In this document: piece after piece, positions 2,145-52,024 of the stretch
Layout: each line of letters begins with the position of its first letter
Numbering within the stretch: position 1 is the first letter of the stretch
Sequence record: OR062946.1
DNA from: Escherichia phage 310Ecol104PP
Reading direction: 5' to 3' (one strand)
Length of the DNA: 64,000 nt
Position numbers and translations under genes: made by a program
Notes under the pieces: model-generated
The model's database searches: none
Told to the model about the DNA's origin: nothing
Seen by the model: the letters and a program-made list of their open reading frames with translations, nothing else

Positions 2145-2894
2145 ATGGCAAACATTATTCGTTGTAAATTACCAGATGGTGTTCATCGTTTTAAACCATT
2201 TACGGTAGAAGATTATCGAGATTTTTTGTTAGTTCGAAACGATATAGAACATCGGTCACCACAAGAACAAAAAGAAATAATTGCTGATTTAATTGCTGAT
2301 TATTTTGGAGACTATCCGAAGACTTGGCAACCATTTATATTTTTGCAGGTATTTGTAGGGTCAATAGGTAAAACTAAAGTACCAGTCACATTTGTGTGTC
2401 CAAAATGTAAAAAAGAAAAGACAGTTCCATTTGAAATATATCAAAAAGAATTAAAGGAACCTGTTTTTGATGTAGCTAATGTTAAAATTAAATTAAAGTT
2501 TCCTTCTGAGTTTTATGAAAATAAAGCAAAGATGATTACTGAAAATATTCATTCTGTTCAAGTAGATGAAATGTGGTATGATTGGAAGGAAATTAGCGAG
2601 TCCAGTCAAATAGAACTCGTTGACGCCATCGAGATAGAAACATTAGAAAAAATTCTCGATGCAATGAATCCTATTAATTTAACTCTACATATGTCATGCT
2701 GTAATAAGTACATTAAAAAATACACTGATATAGTAGACGTGTTTAAGCTATTAGTTAACCCAGATGAGATATTTACTTTTTATCAAATTAATCACACACT
2801 CGTAAAAAGCAATTATAGCTTAAATTCAATAATGAAAATGATTCCTGCTGAGCGCGGATTCGTATTAAAACTGATTGAGAAGGATAAACAATAA
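2145..2894 (+). CDS. 51: baseplate hub assembly protein gp51
   Basis: 249-aa ORF, size and synteny match T4 gp51. Confidence 0.85.
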
Positions 2895-4069
2895 TGAGTA
2901 TGTTGCAACGCCCCGGATATCCAAATCTCAGCGTTAAATTATTTGATAGCTACGACGCTTGGAGTAATAATAGATTTGTTGAATTAGCTGCTACTATTAC
3001 CACATTAACTATGCGTGATTCTCTTTATGGCCGAAATGAAGGAATGCTGCAGTTTTATGATTCTAAAAACATCCATACAAAAATGGATGGAAATGAAATA
3101 ATTCAGATTTCTGTAGCTAATGCAAATGATATTAATAATGTTAAAACACGAATTTATGGATGTAAGCATTTTTCCGTGTCAGTAGATTCAAAAGGTGATA
3201 ACATCATTGCTATTGAATTGGGAACTATTCATTCTATAGAAAATCTTAAATTTGGTAGACCATTTTTCCCTGATGCAGGTGAATCTATAAAAGAAATGCT
3301 TGGTGTCATTTATCAGGATCGCACATTATTAACTCCAGCAATAAATGCTATAAATGCTTATGTTCCTGATATTCCATGGACTAGCACATTTGAAAACTAT
3401 TTGTCATATGTAAGAGAAGTTGCTCTAGCTGTAGGAAGCGACAAATTTGTATTTGTATGGCAAGACATCATGGGAGTTAACATGATGGACTATGATATGA
3501 TGATAAATCAAGAACCATATCCAATGATTGTCGGTGAGCCATCTTTAATAGGTCAATTCATCCAAGAATTAAAATACCCATTAGCATATGATTTTGTTTG
3601 GTTGACTAAATCGAATCCTCACAAACGCGACCCAATGAAAAATGCTACTATCTATGCTCATTCATTTTTAGATTCTTCATTGCCAATGATTACTACAGGA
3701 AAGGGTGAAAACTCTATTGTAGTGTCAAGGTCAGGTGCTTATTCTGAAATGACTTATAGGAATGGATATGAAGAAGCTATTCGTCTTCAAACTATGGCAC
3801 AATATGACGGTTATGCTAAATGTTCTACTGTCGGTAATTTTAACTTGACTCCTGGCGTTAAAATTATTTTTAATGATAGTAAAAACCAATTTAAAACAGA
3901 ATTTTACGTTGATGAAGTTATCCATGAATTATCCAATAATAATTCAGTAACTCATCTATATATGTTCACTAATGCAACGAAACTGGAAACAATAGACCCA
4001 GTTAAGGTTAAAAATGAATTTAAATCTGATACTACCACTGAAGAAAGTAGTTCTTCCAATAAGCAATAA
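2894..4069 (+). CDS. 27: baseplate hub protein gp27
   Basis: 391-aa ORF, size and synteny match T4 gp27. Confidence 0.9.
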
Positions 4070-46224: not shown

Positions 46225-47007
46225 ATGGCAATTGTAGGTGTTCCTGGCTGGATTGGCGAATCTGCCGTGAATGAAACTGGACAACGTTGGATGGATGCTG
46301 CGATGAGAGAAGTTCGTGTTTCAGTTCCCGGTTGGATGAGCTCAATGGCTGGGCAATCTAAAGAGATTCATTATAGCATTGGTGCTAGTAACTCTTACAA
46401 TAAAGACACTCTTATTAACTGGATGAAAGCACAAGGATCTACTCCGGTAGTAATTACTATCACGGGTAATATTGTTTCCCAATCTACTGGCGTTCCTTGT
46501 CTTGACTTCCCTAGCTCGTTAACTAATGCATATGTTACGTTGATCATTAACTCCGGTGTGACTGTCTACGGTCGCGGTGGCAATGGTGGTAGTAACGCTG
46601 CTGGTGCTGCTGGTGGTAACGCAATCAATAACGCTATCGGTACACGTCTACGAATTACAAATAACGGTGCAATCGCTGGAGGTGGCGGCGGCGGTGGCGG
46701 CGGTAACAGGGGTAAACTAATATTTGGTGGTGGCGGTGGTCGCCCATTCGGTGCTGGTGGGTCTTCCTCTCATATGAGTTCCGGTGCAACTGCTGGTACT
46801 ATTTCCGCTCCTGGTAAAGGATCTGTTGGTGAGGGGTCTCTTAGTGCATATACAGGCGGTTCGGGTGGTAATGTCGGTGCTGCTGGAGGAAGATGTAATA
46901 TTCGCGGTCAAGGATCAGAATATAACGGCGGTGCGGCCGGTAAAGCTGTTACTGGTAATGCTCCAACTTGGACTAAGGTTGGTACAATATATGGTTCAAG
47001 AGTATAA
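46225..47007 (+). CDS. 38: receptor-binding adhesin gp38 (T2-type)
   Basis: 260-aa ORF with glycine-rich motifs (GGGGGGGGGN, GGGGRPFGAGG) separating variable segments. Confidence 0.8.
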   Translation: MAIVGVPGWIGESAVNETGQRWMDAAMREVRVSVPGWMSSMAGQSKEIHYSIGASNSYNKDTLINWMKAQGSTPVVITITGNIVSQSTGVPCLDFPSSLTNAYVTLIINSGVTVYGRGGNGGSNAAGAAGGNAINNAIGTRLRITNNGAIAGGGGGGGGGNRGKLIFGGGGGRPFGAGGSSSHMSSGATAGTISAPGKGSVGEGSLSAYTGGSGGNVGAAGGRCNIRGQGSEYNGGAAGKAVTGNAPTWTKVGTIYGSRV

Positions 47008-47039
47008 TTTTTGAATAAATATCCTTAAAAGGAGGGTCT

Positions 47040-47696
47040 ATGGCAGCACCTAGAATATCATTTTCGCCCTCTGATATTCTATTTGGTGTTCTAGATCGCT
47101 TGTTCAAAGATAACGCTACCGGGAAAGTTCTTGCTTCCCGGGTAGCTGTCGTAATTCTTTTATTTATGATGGCGATTGTTTGGTATAGGGGAGATAGTTT
47201 CTTTGAGTACTATAAGCAATCAAAGTATGAAACATACAGTGAAATTATTGAAAAGGAAAGAAATGCACGCTTTGAATCTGTCGCCCTGGAACAACTCCAG
47301 ATAGTTCATATATCATCTGAGGCAGACTTTAGTGCGGTGTATTCTTTCCGCCCTAAAAACTTAAACTATTTTGTTGATATTATAGCATACGAAGGAAGAT
47401 TACCTTCAACAATAACTGAAAAATCACTTGGAGGATATCCTGTTGATAAAACTATGGATGAATATATAGTTCATTTAAATGGACGTCATTATTATTCTGA
47501 CTCAAAATTTGCTTTTTTACCAACTAAAAAGCCTACTCCCGAAATAAACTACATGTACAGTTGTCCATATTTTAATTTGGATAATATCTATGCTGGAACG
47601 ATAACCATGTACTGGTATAGAAATGATCATATAAGTAATGACCGCCTTGAATCAATATGCGCTCAGGCGGCCAGAATATTAGGAAGGGCTAAATAA
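47040..47696 (+). CDS. t: holin T
   Basis: 218-aa ORF with one N-terminal transmembrane segment and large periplasmic domain. Confidence 0.9.
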   Translation: MAAPRISFSPSDILFGVLDRLFKDNATGKVLASRVAVVILLFMMAIVWYRGDSFFEYYKQSKYETYSEIIEKERNARFESVALEQLQIVHISSEADFSAVYSFRPKNLNYFVDIIAYEGRLPSTITEKSLGGYPVDKTMDEYIVHLNGRHYYSDSKFAFLPTKKPTPEINYMYSCPYFNLDNIYAGTITMYWYRNDHISNDRLESICAQAARILGRAK

Positions 47697-47969
47697 TTAT
47701 TTGTTCGTATACATCTCTAGATATCGATATACACCCTCAAAACCCTCGTTGAATTCGTCGATGAGGGTTTTCTTATCTTCTTGAGTTAATTCAGAAACAA
47801 TTTTACGGAATGAATTCTGATTTAATTTTCTACCTTCATGCGTTACTCCAATCTCATTCAGAAATGCAATAAAATTAGCACGATTTTCAACAATATCTTC
47901 TCTGGAAAATTTAATCAAAATAGACGCAACAGTAATAATTTCACGAACTGTATCAATGTTTTTATTCAT
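47697..47969 (-). CDS. asiA: anti-sigma-70 factor AsiA
   Basis: 90-aa ORF, length and position match T4 AsiA; convergent with t. Confidence 0.9.
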   Translation of the reverse strand: MNKNIDTVREIITVASILIKFSREDIVENRANFIAFLNEIGVTHEGRKLNQNSFRKIVSELTQEDKKTLIDEFNEGFEGVYRYLEMYTNK

Positions 47970-47981
47970 TAACTATACCAC

Positions 47982-48134
47982 TCAATTAGTTGACTTTGTT
48001 ATAATATCATCAGACGCTTGATTTGTAAACTGGTCTGTGTTATTTTCTTCAAAAATTTTTTCTACGAATTCCTTGAACGACTCACGTTCCTGAGCTACAT
48101 TATGCTCGATTACCTTTTCAAGATTATGACTCAT
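47982..48134 (-). CDS. possible small acidic 50-aa protein
   Basis: Manual translation MSHNLEKVIEHNVAQ…; start overlaps the arn stop; no clear ribosome-binding site checked. Confidence 0.3.
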   Translation of the reverse strand: MSHNLEKVIEHNVAQERESFKEFVEKIFEENNTDQFTNQASDDIITKSTN

Positions 48135-48409
48135 TCGAAATAATCTTCAATTTCGTAATCATGGACATAAATCATTATAGTTTTTAATACATCATCAATA
48201 CTTTTTCCTGGAGCTGGAATTACGTAAAAATATCCTGCTTTTGAGAGGTCTTTATAAGTTCCAACCAAGAAATCATTATTCTCAAGATGTAGTTCTTCAA
48301 CTAATTCATCGACAATTGAGTGGTATAAATTTGGTAGAAACTTATATAGCTTTTCTAGAATGTCAATTTTGATTGTATATTGAACCACAGATTGAGAATC
48401 AATAATCAT
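48131..48409 (-). CDS. arn: Arn-like acidic protein (anti-restriction, McrBC inhibitor in T4)
   Basis: 92-aa acidic ORF at the T4 arn position next to asiA. Confidence 0.55.
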   Translation of the reverse strand: MIIDSQSVVQYTIKIDILEKLYKFLPNLYHSIVDELVEELHLENNDFLVGTYKDLSKAGYFYVIPAPGKSIDDVLKTIMIYVHDYEIEDYFE

Positions 48410-48492
48410 AGACCTTCCCCTTATGTTTCTGTTTGCGATTAGATTCTTTAAACGCTTTCTTCTTATCTTTATGAACAGAAGCTTTATTAAAA

Positions 48493-48711
48493 TTATGTTT
48501 TGCGACTAAATTGTTCATAGTGCTGAATTACCTCTCTTAAACATTTGCATGTGAATGAAAACTTTTTAGCTACACCACATTCAAATATATGTTCTCTTAA
48601 ATCACTTGTATCAGTATATCCCATCTCAACGATAAAATGCCGTATTAGATTTTTATCTTTATCATTGAGAGAATTAAAATAATCGGATTTTGAATTAATT
48701 TCCCTGGCCAA
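48493..48711 (-). CDS. hypothetical 72-aa Cys-containing protein
   Basis: ORF in the arn-motA train. Confidence 0.45.
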   Translation of the reverse strand: MAREINSKSDYFNSLNDKDKNLIRHFIVEMGYTDTSDLREHIFECGVAKKFSFTCKCLREVIQHYEQFSRKT

Positions 48712-48991
48712 ATTGAATCACCTTCAGTTGGCGTTTTAGCTCTTTTATCATCTCTTCGTTCATCGCAATATAAAGATCGCGTAAAGCAGGCTTTAGCATT
48801 CCATTTATTGGGGAACTAAATGGACATACATAATCTTTTCCTACGAGCTTTTTAGTGAATTCCATATTACAGAACTGAAATGCAGGTTCATTGGCATAAA
48901 TTCCCCATTTAGTTGACATCATTTTATTGGCATATTCCAATGCCTGGATTTGATTCATAATTCCATCAATTTGAAACTTTTTAATATTCAT
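48695..48991 (-). CDS. hypothetical 98-aa protein
   Basis: ORF in the arn-motA train. Confidence 0.45.
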   Translation of the reverse strand: MNIKKFQIDGIMNQIQALEYANKMMSTKWGIYANEPAFQFCNMEFTKKLVGKDYVCPFSSPINGMLKPALRDLYIAMNEEMIKELKRQLKVIQFGQGN

Positions 48992-49452
48992 TAGTAAAGG
49001 TCCTCAGAGTAAAGTTCTTTTTCACTACCACCACGTTCAATGCGTACTTGTCCAGCGTAAGTTGCAATAATCATTGCTTCTTCACGTGTCCAATAATTAC
49101 TATATTGGTCAATAAACCCTTGGTCATCATCACAAACTTGCTGAGTAACTAATTGAGGTTTAACTACATCTAAAACTGCTGCCATATCTTTAGAATAATG
49201 ACGAGCACCCGGAATAATAAGAGTTCGTCCATCTTTTAATCTAAAACGGTTGGCTGCACAGACAATTCGTCGTTGATATTTTTGATTTTCGTCCCAATAT
49301 GCAGACTGCCAACAAATTTCAGGAACTTCTGCAAGAATATCTTCTTCTGTGCATTTATAACCGTGTGCTTTAAATTTTTGAACAAGACTTTCTGGAGTCT
49401 CACGAGATAAAGGAACATTCAGCATTTTTAAACGATTAATAAATGGATTCAT
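48991..49452 (-). CDS. hypothetical 153-aa protein
   Basis: ORF in the arn-motA train; no motif recognised. Confidence 0.5.
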
Positions 49453-49778
49453 TTAAACCATCCTTTAATACGTTGCCACAAAGTTTTCTGTTGAGCTTTG
49501 TTAACACCAATTGAGCGAATAACTGGTTGAGATTCCTGGAATTCTTTATAATCAGCAAGGTAAATTTCGTAAGCTGAATCTGTAAAAGAACTTATCGCCG
49601 CCATAAAATTATTGCGAATACCTACTGGAGCATCTTTACTTTCACGAATAATCATGTATTTACCAGTCTTAATCTTTACGATAGTTCCAAGATAAGCTCC
49701 ATGGTACCAGATGTCCCACCCCTCTTGAGTGGGTTCTGCACAACGACGAAGTTCATTGATAATTTCTAACTTGTTCAT
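49449..49778 (-). CDS. hypothetical 109-aa protein
   Basis: ORF immediately downstream of motA. Confidence 0.5.
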
Positions 49779-49788
49779 TATTTATTCC

Positions 49789-50424
49789 TCACAGTTCAGA
49801 TGCTACGGTGATTACAGCTTCAATGTTTTCTGCCGAGCGTTTAATGTCAAGATACACATTACCATTTTTAGCGATTTTACATGACATTCCGATATCAGTA
49901 AATTTCTGAATATGATGTTCCATCATTTTGTATCCAAAAATTCGCATATTTCCATTGTTGTTAATTTCAAAATTACGAATTCCGTGAGTGCGTTTTTCTA
50001 AAATAGCGAGATAGTTACTGCGATAAATTTCAATCTTTTTAACAACAAATCTGGTTTCATTTAAAAGTTTTAACATGAAATCTTTATCTTCTTCCATATC
50101 AGAAGTAATTTCACGAGCTTTACGAGTTGCTCGTTTTTTCAGTAGTTCTGGAGCATTTTCCTGTGCGTATAAAGTTGCTGCATTTGAAATAATATCCTGA
50201 GCTTCACCCGTAATGATTAATCCATCGCCAGATTTCTCCACCAGGCCTTTTTTAATCAATACCCCAATATTACTATTAACTATTGCGTTACCTAAATCTG
50301 GATGCACCTCACGAACTTCTGCAGCTGTAATGAAATCTTTCTTAGCAATAGTAATTAAAATCGCAGCAGTTTTTTCATTCAGAACATCGTTAGAAGCTTT
50401 GATGATGTAAGTTACTTTAGACAT
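49789..50424 (-). CDS. motA: MotA, activator of middle transcription
   Basis: 211-aa ORF, length and position match T4 MotA. Confidence 0.9.
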   Translation of the reverse strand: MSKVTYIIKASNDVLNEKTAAILITIAKKDFITAAEVREVHPDLGNAIVNSNIGVLIKKGLVEKSGDGLIITGEAQDIISNAATLYAQENAPELLKKRATRKAREITSDMEEDKDFMLKLLNETRFVVKKIEIYRSNYLAILEKRTHGIRNFEINNNGNMRIFGYKMMEHHIQKFTDIGMSCKIAKNGNVYLDIKRSAENIEAVITVASEL

Positions 50425-50464
50425 TTTCTAATCTCCGTAATTCTGTATCAGTAGTTGATAGTTG

Positions 50465-50495
50465 TATAGTACCATAGAATGCTTTGGTTGTAAAC
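50465..50495 (-). promoter_or_regulatory. early promoter of motA
   Basis: GTTTAC, 18 nt, TACTAT with A/T-rich upstream tract; sits between the upstream terminator and motA. Confidence 0.5.
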
Positions 50496-50524
50496 CGTTT
50501 TGTGAAAAAATTTTAAAATAAAAA

Positions 50525-50544
50525 GGGAGAGCCGAGGCTCTCCC
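50525..50544 (-). terminator. terminator hairpin after the gene 52 operon
   Basis: GGGAGAG-ccgagg-CTCTCCC followed on the minus transcript by a U-rich run. Confidence 0.5.
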
Positions 50545-50549
50545 TAAAA

Positions 50550-50699
50550 TTACTGCATGACTGTGATAACTGTCATGATAACACGTTGAATTCCGAACGC
50601 AAGAAGACCTCCTGCTACGGCTGGAACAACACCTAAACCCGCCAGTAAAATACCACCAGATACTAATACCGCGCTTGTAATACCTATAAATGGACTCAT
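50550..50699 (-). CDS. small hydrophobic 49-aa protein
   Basis: Manual translation MSPFIGITSAVLVSGGILLAGLGVV…; ATGA overlap with the gene 52 stop. Confidence 0.4.
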   Translation of the reverse strand: MSPFIGITSAVLVSGGILLAGLGVVPAVAGGLLAFGIQRVIMTVITVMQ

Positions 50700-52024
50700 T
50701 TGATTTCCTCTAAATCTTTGGTGTATTCAGTGACTACATCAGTAGTTTTCCAATATTCGTTTTCTTCTTTCTTAGCTTTAGCTTCTTCAGCAAGTTTCTT
50801 TGCTTCGTCGGAAGTCATATGAAAAATATTCATTCCAACTAGTTTATCAACATAAGAAGAATACATATCAATTTTAGAAAGTTCTTCGGTCAGTTCTTTG
50901 CGAGTTTTACCTTGCACAACAATTTCACCTGAAATTACTTTCTTAATGAAATGTGCCTTGGCAAAGGCTAAACGAAATGCTGATTCAGTTTCTTTGATTT
51001 TGTTATCAATTCGCTTTTGGACATAAGTTTTACGAACTTCAACGAAGTCTTTAATTAAATCAACTACGTTATCGTAAACTTGTAGCTTTCCTTTCTCATT
51101 AATGACGGTAATATTCTGGGAACGACGCTCAATCAACCCGAAGTCTTTCATAATTTTTGCATGGCGTTCTTCTTCGTTATCACTCAAAGAATATTCTTTG
51201 CGGAATTTAACTTTGAATCCAAAACCATGCTCACCACAAGCATCATCCCATGTAATGAAGCCTTTATCTTCAAGCGGGTCTAAGATTTTACTCACATAAG
51301 TTTCACGATCATACTTATACGGAATCTCAGTGATATTCATTTGAGTTCGTGAAGTAAACTTGTACGTTCCACGAATTTCATATTGACCGTCAATTTCAAC
51401 GACTTCACCACGAAATTCTGGGAATTCTACTTTCGGTTTAGTTACTTTCTTTCCTTGAAGAGCTTGCAGTACAGCTTTCTTGACAGAAGAAACACTATGA
51501 GGAAGAATGTAAGTTGCATAACCAGTTGCAATACCGGAAACGCCATTAAGAAGAACAGTAGGAATAATAGGCAAATAGAAAGCAGGCGGAATGTGTTCTT
51601 TATCTTGATGCACCGGAGCATATTCAGTATCTTTATATACGTTATAGAAATTTTTACTTACACGAGCAAAAATATAACGACTTGCCGCTGCTTTTTGAAC
51701 AGTACGAGAACCAAAGTTTCCTTGACCATCTAACAGAGGAAAGTTATTATTCCAAGTATTAGCCATCAAAGCACCTGCGTCTTGTGCAGAGTTTTCGCCA
51801 TGATGATATCCAAGGTCCGCTACACCACCTGCGATAGAAGCGAGTTTGTGAAACTTATCTTTATTTCCTCGTGCCAAATCAAGAGCTCGAGCAATAACAA
51901 ATCGTTGAACTGGCTTAAATCCATCAATCATATTTGGAATAGCACGATTTTCAACCGTGTACATAGCATAAGCCAATGCTTCATTATCAATGATACTTTT
52001 TAAATCGCGATTATTCAGTTGCAT
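50696..52024 (-). CDS. 52: DNA topoisomerase II medium subunit gp52
   Basis: 442-aa ORF, length and position match T4 gp52. Confidence 0.9.
   Translation of the reverse strand: MQLNNRDLKSIIDNEALAYAMYTVENRAIPNMIDGFKPVQRFVIARALDLARGNKDKFHKLASIAGGVADLGYHHGENSAQDAGALMANTWNNNFPLLDGQGNFGSRTVQKAAASRYIFARVSKNFYNVYKDTEYAPVHQDKEHIPPAFYLPIIPTVLLNGVSGIATGYATYILPHSVSSVKKAVLQALQGKKVTKPKVEFPEFRGEVVEIDGQYEIRGTYKFTSRTQMNITEIPYKYDRETYVSKILDPLEDKGFITWDDACGEHGFGFKVKFRKEYSLSDNEEERHAKIMKDFGLIERRSQNITVINEKGKLQVYDNVVDLIKDFVEVRKTYVQKRIDNKIKETESAFRLAFAKAHFIKKVISGEIVVQGKTRKELTEELSKIDMYSSYVDKLVGMNIFHMTSDEAKKLAEEAKAKKEENEYWKTTDVVTEYTKDLEEIK

Follow-up and report, generated by a model that had tools for sequence, protein, structure and literature searches.

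The asiA–motA Interval of Escherichia Phage 310Ecol104PP: The arn Gene String of T4-like Phages and Arn.3, a Member of the Phage-Only T4_Y16D Family

Gene Content of the asiA–motA Interval

In the present study, we analyzed 64,000 nucleotides (nt) of Escherichia phage 310Ecol104PP (OR062946.1; this whole stretch is referred to as the window), with the focus on positions 47982–49778, where a 153-amino-acid (aa) protein is encoded among several small open reading frames (ORFs). An earlier note on this DNA had described these positions as an arn-to-motA interval with ORFs of 50, 72, 98, 153 and 109 aa, and had proposed that the neighbors of arn could be additional anti-restriction or anti-defense factors. 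The 2.2 kilobases (kb) around the interval were 97–98% identical to hundreds of Tequatrovirus (T2/T4-like) genomes; the 2.2-kb query matched 673 phage records, 483 of which covered at least 80% of it. Judged by this identity, the window is a Tequatrovirus genome of the T2/T4 type. Read against the T4 reference (NC_000866), phage HMD-9 and RB51, the order of the genes on the minus strand, starting from motA, was motA, arn.4, arn.3, arn.2, arn.1, a 39-aa gene, arn, asiA.1 and asiA. The seven minus-strand ORFs between asiA and motA tiled 100% of 47982–49778, and protein comparison revealed 95–100% identity to the T4 orthologues in the same order. The interval genes were also present in hundreds of phage records. 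Taken together, it is almost certain that a T2/T4-type Tequatrovirus carries in this interval the conserved asiA.1–arn–(39-aa gene)–arn.1–arn.2–arn.3–arn.4 string, that the string is read from the direction of motA in the pre-replicative (early/middle) program, and that its 153-aa product is Arn.3 of the phage-only T4_Y16D family. The interval genes are already catalogued, and Arn.3, although uncharacterized, is not newly discovered here.

The arn.3 gene (48991–49452, minus strand) encodes a protein of 153 aa and 17.9 kDa with an isoelectric point (pI) of 5.5, which matched phrog_839 (7.7e-73) and Pfam PF26092. The protein had been considered unrecognized, which does not hold, since it corresponds to T4 Arn.3 (NP_049871, Y16D_BPT4), with which it shares the slot in the genome and 95.4% identity, at 153 aa versus 152 aa in T4. 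The two are the same protein in sister phages. The remark that no functional motif could be placed in it was borne out by searches of Pfam, NCBIfam and the PDB, which gave noise only. The other ORFs of the earlier note are likewise real: all five exist at their coordinates, and all are on the minus strand. The 50-aa ORF, asiA.1, had been placed between arn and motA; it sits between arn and asiA, so the interval contains arn and is really an asiA-to-motA interval. The set was also incomplete, as a seventh gene of 39 aa at 48399–48518 had been overlooked. The arn gene (48131–48409, minus strand) encodes 92 aa (pI 4.46) of a DNA mimic that inhibits McrBC and H-NS, and its recognition was upheld by Pfam DM_Arn (5.6e-53) and by the solved structure of T4 Arn (PDB 3WX4, 8.7e-55); the protein was 95.7% identical to T4 Arn.

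The remaining genes are all on the minus strand. The downstream boundary is formed by asiA (47697–47969), encoding the anti-sigma-70 protein, which matched Pfam AsiA (1e-42) and was 100% identical to T4 AsiA. Next to it lies asiA.1 (47982–48134; 50 aa, pI 4.6), which matched phrog_3762 (7e-38) and was 98–100% identical to asiA.1 of T4 and RB51. The product of the 39-aa gene (pI 10.2) matched Pfam DUF7230 (1.2e-11) and phrog_1359 (5e-23). Next come arn.1 (48493–48711; 72 aa from a TTG start), matching phrog_4452 (72 aa; 5e-39), and arn.2 (48695–48991; 98 aa, pI 9.2), matching phrog_1844 (1e-49), with Pfam PF26819 precomputed on its homologues. On the other side of arn.3 lies arn.4 (49449–49778; 109 aa, pI 9.2), which belongs to phrog_1594. 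The upstream boundary is motA (49789–50424), encoding the activator of middle transcription (Pfam MotA_activ, 1e-60; MotCF, 6e-64), whose stop codon lies 8 nt ahead of the arn.4 start. The T4 counterparts of arn.1, arn.2, arn.4 and asiA.1 are listed as "conserved hypothetical" under PHROGs 4452, 1844, 1594 and 3762 and Pfam PF26819 and PF26821.

Outside the interval, the gene before the holin gene (46225–47007, plus strand) encodes a 260-aa glycine-rich gp38 adhesin of the T2/T6 type and not the 183-aa assembly chaperone that is gp38 of the T4 type; in its receptor-recognition module, the phage therefore resembles T2.

Coding Status of the Small ORFs

In AT-rich DNA, short open frames arise readily, and the 50-, 72- and 39-aa ORFs could in principle be products of chance. 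The numbers of open stretches expected by chance in the 1.8-kb interval were 0.001 at 153 aa, 0.03 at 109 aa and 0.07 at 98 aa, compared with 0.67 at 72 aa and 4.3 at 50 aa; over the range of 39–72 codons, 0.7–11 would be expected. Length by itself sets only the 153-, 109- and 98-aa ORFs apart from chance. The other evidence runs against chance. Pairwise ratios of nonsynonymous to synonymous substitution (dN/dS), calculated by the Nei-Gojobori method against the orthologues of T4, RB51, Mosigvirus, Dhakavirus and Gaprivervirus, ranged from 0.04 to 0.37 across the interval ORFs, far below 1, and all interval genes are under purifying selection. The encoded proteins are conserved across genera, including that of the 39-aa ORF and the N-terminal part of that of the 72-aa ORF. 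There were family matches in both PHROG and Pfam, with the listed ORFs reaching 1e-38 to 1e-73 in the former, and the minus strand is fully tiled. In addition, most of the ORFs are preceded by Shine-Dalgarno sequences, and the start and stop codons of neighboring ORFs overlap (ATGA, TAATG). We consider it highly improbable that any of the three is a chance ORF.

The Arn.3 (T4_Y16D) Family

A homologue search with Arn.3 returned 144 clusters, all of which carried a precomputed assignment to Pfam PF26092. The name of this family, T4_Y16D, derives from Y16D_BPT4, under which UniProt lists T4 Arn.3; the family model was absent from the Pfam copy that we scanned, which explains why the direct Pfam scan of Arn.3 came back empty. 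An exhaustive profile search extended the family to 4,922 clusters at 50% identity (E ≤ 1e-3), of which 1,740 remained at E ≤ 1e-10, and all 142 diverse relatives that were classified fell in a single PHROG, phrog_839. By tblastn, homologues of Arn.3 were found in 1,568 of 50,697 phage records, or about 3% of sequenced phages, including T4-like phages of Escherichia, Klebsiella, Enterobacter, Erwinia and Acinetobacter. By group, the hits span Straboviridae, Stephanstirmvirinae, Ackermannviridae and jumbo phages. Scanning with a degenerate DNA pattern further located the family in prophage-like regions of Beta-, Gamma- and Alphaproteobacteria, among them Paraburkholderia, Thauera, Agrobacterium and Motiliproteus, as well as of Opitutaceae and a metagenome-assembled genome of Methanosarcinales.

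The conserved unit comprises about 90 residues and reads RIVCAAN – x – G-A-R-H-x-D-x-x-M – variable – (E)QGFID-x-x-G-x-F-x-x-R-E-E-A-x-x-I-A-x-x-A-G-Q – about 10 residues – L-F-S-E-D-L-Y. Over 142 sequences, H85, G112, F113 and R123 were invariant, and R84, Q111, D115, Q135, S149, E150, L152 and Y153 were at least 90% conserved; in the alignments, R61, A66-A67-N68 and M90 were also invariant or nearly so. Arn.3 of the window carries all of the signature motifs, namely CAAN (C65–N68), G-x-R-H (with R84-H85), Q-G-F-x-D (Q111–D115), R-x-x-A (R123), G-Q (Q135) and the C-terminal S-E-x-L-Y (S149–Y153). From the family alignments, the core of the protein spans residues ~58–153 (48994–49281, minus strand). 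In 256 of 260 database relatives and all 75 IMG/VR genes, the domain formed the very C-terminus, and 244 of the 260 ended in tyrosine. This constant position and the final Tyr suggest that the tail or its free carboxylate is functional. With a median pI of 6.3 and a net charge of -1, the core is close to neutral, unlike a DNA mimic or a generic polycationic binder of nucleic acids.

The N-terminal extensions, in turn, are variable, with a median length of 34 residues, and match no Pfam family. No Pfam domain was found in the ten longest relatives (244–446 aa), no recurrent family in a Pfam scan of 142 relatives at E ≤ 1, and no polyvalent or long fusion protein at 75 IMG/VR loci; one relative carries an apparent RMF-like N-terminal segment (E 9e-6), a single case. 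Seven relatives are tandem duplications of the domain, in which the C-terminal copy keeps all the invariant residues and the N-terminal copy is degenerate, with R84 replaced by K, N or T and the S-E-x-L-Y tail usually lost. These forms hint indirectly that the working unit may be a dimer, and the pattern of loss suggests a pseudo-dimer with one complete site.

Predicted Structure of Arn.3

The structure of Arn.3 was modeled by AlphaFold2 from a 56-sequence alignment, and the model was confident, with a predicted local distance difference test score of 90.1 and a predicted template modeling score of 0.78. In the model, an N-terminal helical extension and a β-hairpin (residues 1 to ~57), which are specific to T-even phages, precede a core with the predicted topology β-β-α-β-β-α, followed by the C-terminal tail. 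The family profile, searched against all PDB sequences, gave nothing below E 0.25, and a Foldseek search of the model against BFVD gave only uncharacterized phage proteins and some marginal matches, which are considered below. An hhalign comparison of the two halves of the core gave no signal for an internal ββα duplication. On the available evidence, the predicted fold of Arn.3 appears to have no solved relative.

Searches for functional relatives were equally uninformative. In Pfam, the best match of Arn.3 was Prok-E2_B at a sub-threshold E of 0.086; the best in NCBIfam was the Nif11 leader at 0.0047, also sub-threshold noise. A PADLOC scan of the interval ORFs yielded only chance-level matches (E 0.0013–0.008).

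Genomic Context of the Family

Tevenvirinae from Tequatrovirus to Klebsiella phage Roth68 share a translationally coupled arn.4–arn.3–arn.2 trio, and genera that have no arn keep it too. The position of arn.3 between arn.2 and arn.4 was the same in T4, HMD-9, RB51, Mosigvirus, Dhakavirus, Gaprivervirus and Roth68. Around the trio, the motA–asiA region varies from genus to genus: arn may be there or missing, and additional small ORFs have been inserted. Such an arrangement could be taken to mean that Arn.4, Arn.3 and Arn.2 form a Tevenvirinae hetero-complex that modulates host transcription or translation beside MotA and AsiA. The location of the trio between motA and asiA, its conservation as far as Roth68, and the overlapping start and stop codons (ATGA, TAATG), which suggest stoichiometric co-translation, are all in keeping with that. 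In most other phages, however, Arn.3 homologues occur without Arn.2, Arn.4, MotA or AsiA, and no similarity to proteins that bind RNA polymerase or the ribosome was found apart from the lone RMF-like segment described above. We regard a hetero-complex of this kind as very unlikely.

Outside Tevenvirinae, the homologues of Arn.3 stand alone. At 16 bacterial and 75 IMG/VR loci, no partner gene was found among the neighbors, none of which recurred in more than five loci. The surrounding genes encode gp52-type topoisomerase II, YqaJ, ERF, DnaB, NinG, primase, methylases, dCMP deaminase and NADAR. The lack of a recurring neighbor, together with these early, replication and recombination surroundings, indicates that the T4_Y16D domain is autonomous and pre-replicative. 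In Salmonella phage Se_EM1 (Kuttervirus, Ackermannviridae), the homologue (2869–3282) lies just downstream of the genes for topoisomerase II subunits and a small membrane protein, an order that echoes 52 – motA.1 – (motA – arn.4) – arn.3 in T4. The topoisomerase II linkage was also seen in 5 of the 75 IMG/VR loci, and it may be older than the link to arn.

These surroundings raise the question of whether Arn.3 is a nucleic-acid-directed accessory factor of replication, recombination or topology, that is, a structure-specific DNA- or RNA-binding or end-processing protein, and has no part in counter-defense. Besides the location downstream of topoisomerase II genes in both T4-like and Kuttervirus phages, the proximity to DNA ligase in Justusliebigvirus and the prophage neighbors YqaJ, ERF, DnaB, NinG, primase and methylases are consistent with such a role, and the conserved Arg, His and Gln residues could contact backbone phosphates. 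The charge of the core does not favor it, and on balance we find this role unlikely.

The Smaller Genes of the Interval

The 39-aa gene overlaps the start of arn by 11 nt and the end of arn.1 by 26 nt. Its product was 100% identical in T4, RB51 and HMD-9 and 74–92% identical in four other genera, with a dN/dS of at most 0.10, and across genera it was better conserved than arn.2 or arn. RB51 lists the gene as RB32ORF249c, whereas NC_000866, the T4 reference, and many other records leave it unannotated.

The annotation of arn.1 in T4 also appears to need revision. The reference annotates only the last 43 codons of the gene, from an ATG at 48624. In the window, the longer frame opens at 48711 with TTG, and the Shine-Dalgarno sequence GAAGGTG stands 7 nt ahead of it. 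In Mosigvirus and Gaprivervirus, the orthologues begin with ATG and conserve the N-terminal 29 residues, and the dN/dS of arn.1 was 0.07–0.22. These results suggested that arn.1 probably encodes 72 aa from the TTG rather than the 43 aa annotated in T4. We therefore suggest two corrections to the T4 reference, namely the addition of the 39-aa gene and the extension of arn.1 from 43 aa to 72 aa.

Arn.2 is basic and evolves fast, with 36–40% identity between genera, and is confined to Tevenvirinae; Arn.4 is confined to T4-like phages. In single-sequence searches of PDB sequences, no match was found with Arn.2 or with Arn.4. For Arn.4, the model predicted an α-β5-α-α fold, then a linker without order and an amphipathic helix at the C-terminus. 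The start codon of arn.4 (49776–49778) is ATG in the window, HMD-9 and RB51, whereas it is ATA in the T4 reference; this explains why T4 Arn.4 is annotated as 68 aa from an internal Met, although its 109-codon frame is otherwise intact. The lineage restriction of both proteins and the fast evolution of Arn.2 are compatible with a role in host interaction without demonstrating one.

Transcription and the ArcZ Site

The transcription of these genes has been studied in T2. According to a June 2026 preprint, arn.4–arn.3–arn.2–arn.1–arn forms one abundant middle transcript, and the host small RNA ArcZ pairs at +285 to +294 of arn.2 and shields the transcript from RNase E. The same preprint states that only Arn has a known function and that the functions of Arn.1–4 are unknown; it was also the only report found in the literature on arn.3, Y16D, PF26092 and phrog_839. 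The view that the neighbors of arn share its operon was thus confirmed, as the genes are co-oriented, translationally coupled and, in T2, contained with arn in one abundant transcript. In the window, the pairing site, with its positions taken from the preprint, lies intact at 48698–48707 (minus strand). The site is kept in T4 and RB51 and is absent in Mosigvirus and Gaprivervirus. Its sequence, CCAGGGAAAT, which we take to be complementary to ArcZ, overlaps both the 3' end of arn.2 and codons 2–4 of the long arn.1 ORF. ArcZ would therefore pair in the translation-initiation region of arn.1. If arn.1 encodes 72 aa, the "70-nt intergenic region" of the preprint, with its GCAUU site for RNase E, would also be coding (R-H-F-I-V-E-M). 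The suggested corrections for arn.1 and the 39-aa gene consequently bear on how the ArcZ/RNase E model is to be read for this operon.

Upstream of the operon, pattern matching found a strong terminator-like hairpin between motA.1 and motA (50545–50524, minus strand; 9-base-pair (bp) stem with 6 GC pairs and a T-run). It is immediately followed by a sigma-70 promoter-like site with an extended -10 (50494–50466, minus strand; TTTACA-17-TACTAT with TG), a match from a consensus scan. This site is likely an early promoter for motA, from which transcription would read into arn.4 and on through asiA. Within arn.2, a MotA-box-like pattern (TGCTTTA-9 nt-TATATT; 48767–48788, minus strand) is not claimed as a promoter; its spacer is shorter than that of canonical T4 middle promoters. 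Patterns of this kind are common by chance, with 37 matches in the window versus 25 expected. A scan of 47000–51000 against Rfam found no RNA family.

On the plus strand, a hairpin with a 14-bp stem followed by a T-rich tract (47739–47771) lies 43 nt past the stop codon of the holin gene t. It is probably the terminator of t and, on the opposite strand, falls within the 3' part of the asiA coding sequence.

Arn.3 and the Anti-Restriction Reading

Many GenBank records give "anti-restriction nuclease" as the product name for arn.1–arn.4, and phrog_4452 bears this name too. Taken at its word, the name would make Arn.1–4 stoichiometric inhibitors of host restriction or defense nucleases, binding the nuclease in the manner of Arn, Ocr or IPI*. 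The genes share operon and expression with arn, in a motA–asiA region that is plastic between genera; Arn.2 and Arn.4 occur in restricted lineages; and Arn.2 shows the rapid divergence that is often seen in arms-race genes. Clear homology to a housekeeping enzyme and absence of expression were the two results that the earlier note had named as speaking against its proposal: no such homology of the 153-aa protein was found in Pfam, NCBIfam or the PDB, and the genes are expressed according to the T2 preprint. On the other side, no similarity to anti-defense or DNA-mimic proteins and no significant PADLOC match was found for the interval proteins, and Arn.3 had neither sequence nor fold similarity to Arn (PDB 3WX4). 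Arn.3 resembles T4 Arn in being a small phage protein of the same operon and temporal class. The two differ in charge and in breadth: Arn is strongly acidic (pI 4.46; 17 acidic and 7 basic residues) and limited to a subset of T-even phages, whereas Arn.3 has a pI of 5.47 (23 acidic and 20 basic residues) with a near-neutral core, and its family extends to about 3% of phages, including temperate ones. Arn.2 and Arn.4 are basic, with pI values of about 9.2. Moreover, the Arn.3 core is conserved across phages of unrelated hosts, some of which would not share one nuclease, and the trio is kept where arn is absent.

The evidence on Arn.3 therefore leans away from an Arn-like stoichiometric inhibitor, and we judge the nuclease-inhibitor reading unlikely for the set as a whole; it is disfavored for Arn.3 by breadth and charge and may still apply to Arn.2 and Arn.4. 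As a whole, the anti-restriction proposal of the earlier note was neither borne out nor refuted. The label itself appears to have spread by way of the gene names; neither homology nor experiment supports it. Setting it aside removes a false lead, since the databases apply it to arn.1–arn.4 with no evidential basis.

A Possible Function of Arn.3

A small domain with a wide host spread and invariant polar residues would most plausibly form a dimer that binds a ligand that is the same in all hosts. The conservation of these residues across unrelated phages fits a universal ligand better than a host-specific nuclease. We tentatively propose, as a possibility that falls well short of an even chance, that the T4_Y16D core is a dimeric module that binds, and possibly hydrolyzes, a small phosphate-bearing ligand common to very different hosts. 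In this proposal, the ~90-aa core would work autonomously as a dimer, with a putative pocket lined by R84-H85, Q111/D115, R123, Q135 and the C-terminal S-E-x-L-Y-COOH tail. As candidate ligand, one may think of a nucleotide, a signal derived from nucleotides or the end of a nucleic acid. In that case, Arn.3 would serve in host takeover or early DNA metabolism as an enzyme or "sponge" directed at nucleotides, and it would differ from Arn in not mimicking DNA to inhibit one given restriction nuclease. In Tevenvirinae, Arn.4 and Arn.2 would be lineage-specific partners or neighbors to which Arn.3 is translationally coupled.

The format of Arn.3 invites comparison with known nucleotide sponges and enzymes. 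Tad1, Tad2, Acb2, Acb4, Sequestin (T4 Y16Q) and Acb1 are, like Arn.3, short, phage-only, early and autonomous and are spread across unrelated phages. Small homo-oligomeric phage proteins with charged pockets are a known sponge format, and T4 itself encodes Acb1, Acb2 and Y16Q/Sequestin. The criteria for sponges include a positively charged pocket at the protomer interface and the binding of immune nucleotides (PMC12265669). In size and spread, Arn.3 falls within this class, as it has 153 aa (core of about 90), below the limit of 200 aa, and is unannotated and widespread. Its conserved Arg- and His-rich polar residues are sponge-like as well, and so would be a homo-oligomeric state, which the tandem-duplicated relatives hint at indirectly. 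Arn.3 has no homology or fold match to Tad1, Tad2, Acb2, Acb4, Sequestin or Acb1, and the comparison is a hypothesis on how these proteins work and not on their descent.

Several points weigh against an enzyme or sponge. The ligand, the pocket and the oligomer are all putative, and the invariant residues could instead serve folding or an interface with protein or nucleic acid. Neither sequence nor fold linked the family to a known enzyme or sponge, which leaves analogy as the sole basis of the mechanism. The marginal BFVD matches (E 5e-3 to 7e-2) lay inside three "large polyvalent protein" segments; the paper on polyvalent proteins makes no mention of Arn.3. The tight coupling of arn.4, arn.3 and arn.2 in Tevenvirinae could mean that Arn.3 works there in a hetero-complex. 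A weaker point is that a structure-guided screen for sponges that highlighted T4 proteins names Acb1, Acb2 and Y16Q and does not name Arn.3. Taken as a whole, the gene identities together with the proposed mechanism of Arn.3 provide the best explanation of the locus, in which our confidence stays slightly under the halfway mark.

The T4_Y16D family is a good experimental target, since it is found in about 3% of phages and combines a confident model that has no structural relative with enzyme-like invariant residues and an obligatory C-terminal Tyr. In its most far-reaching form, which we consider possible but doubtful, T4_Y16D would be an unrecognized fold serving as a dimeric enzyme or sponge that breaks down or sequesters a molecule derived from nucleotides, one that hosts ranging from Proteobacteria to Firmicutes employ. 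If that is true, T4_Y16D would represent a new and very widespread class of phage counter-defense or host-takeover factor that had stayed hidden in T4 beside arn for decades.

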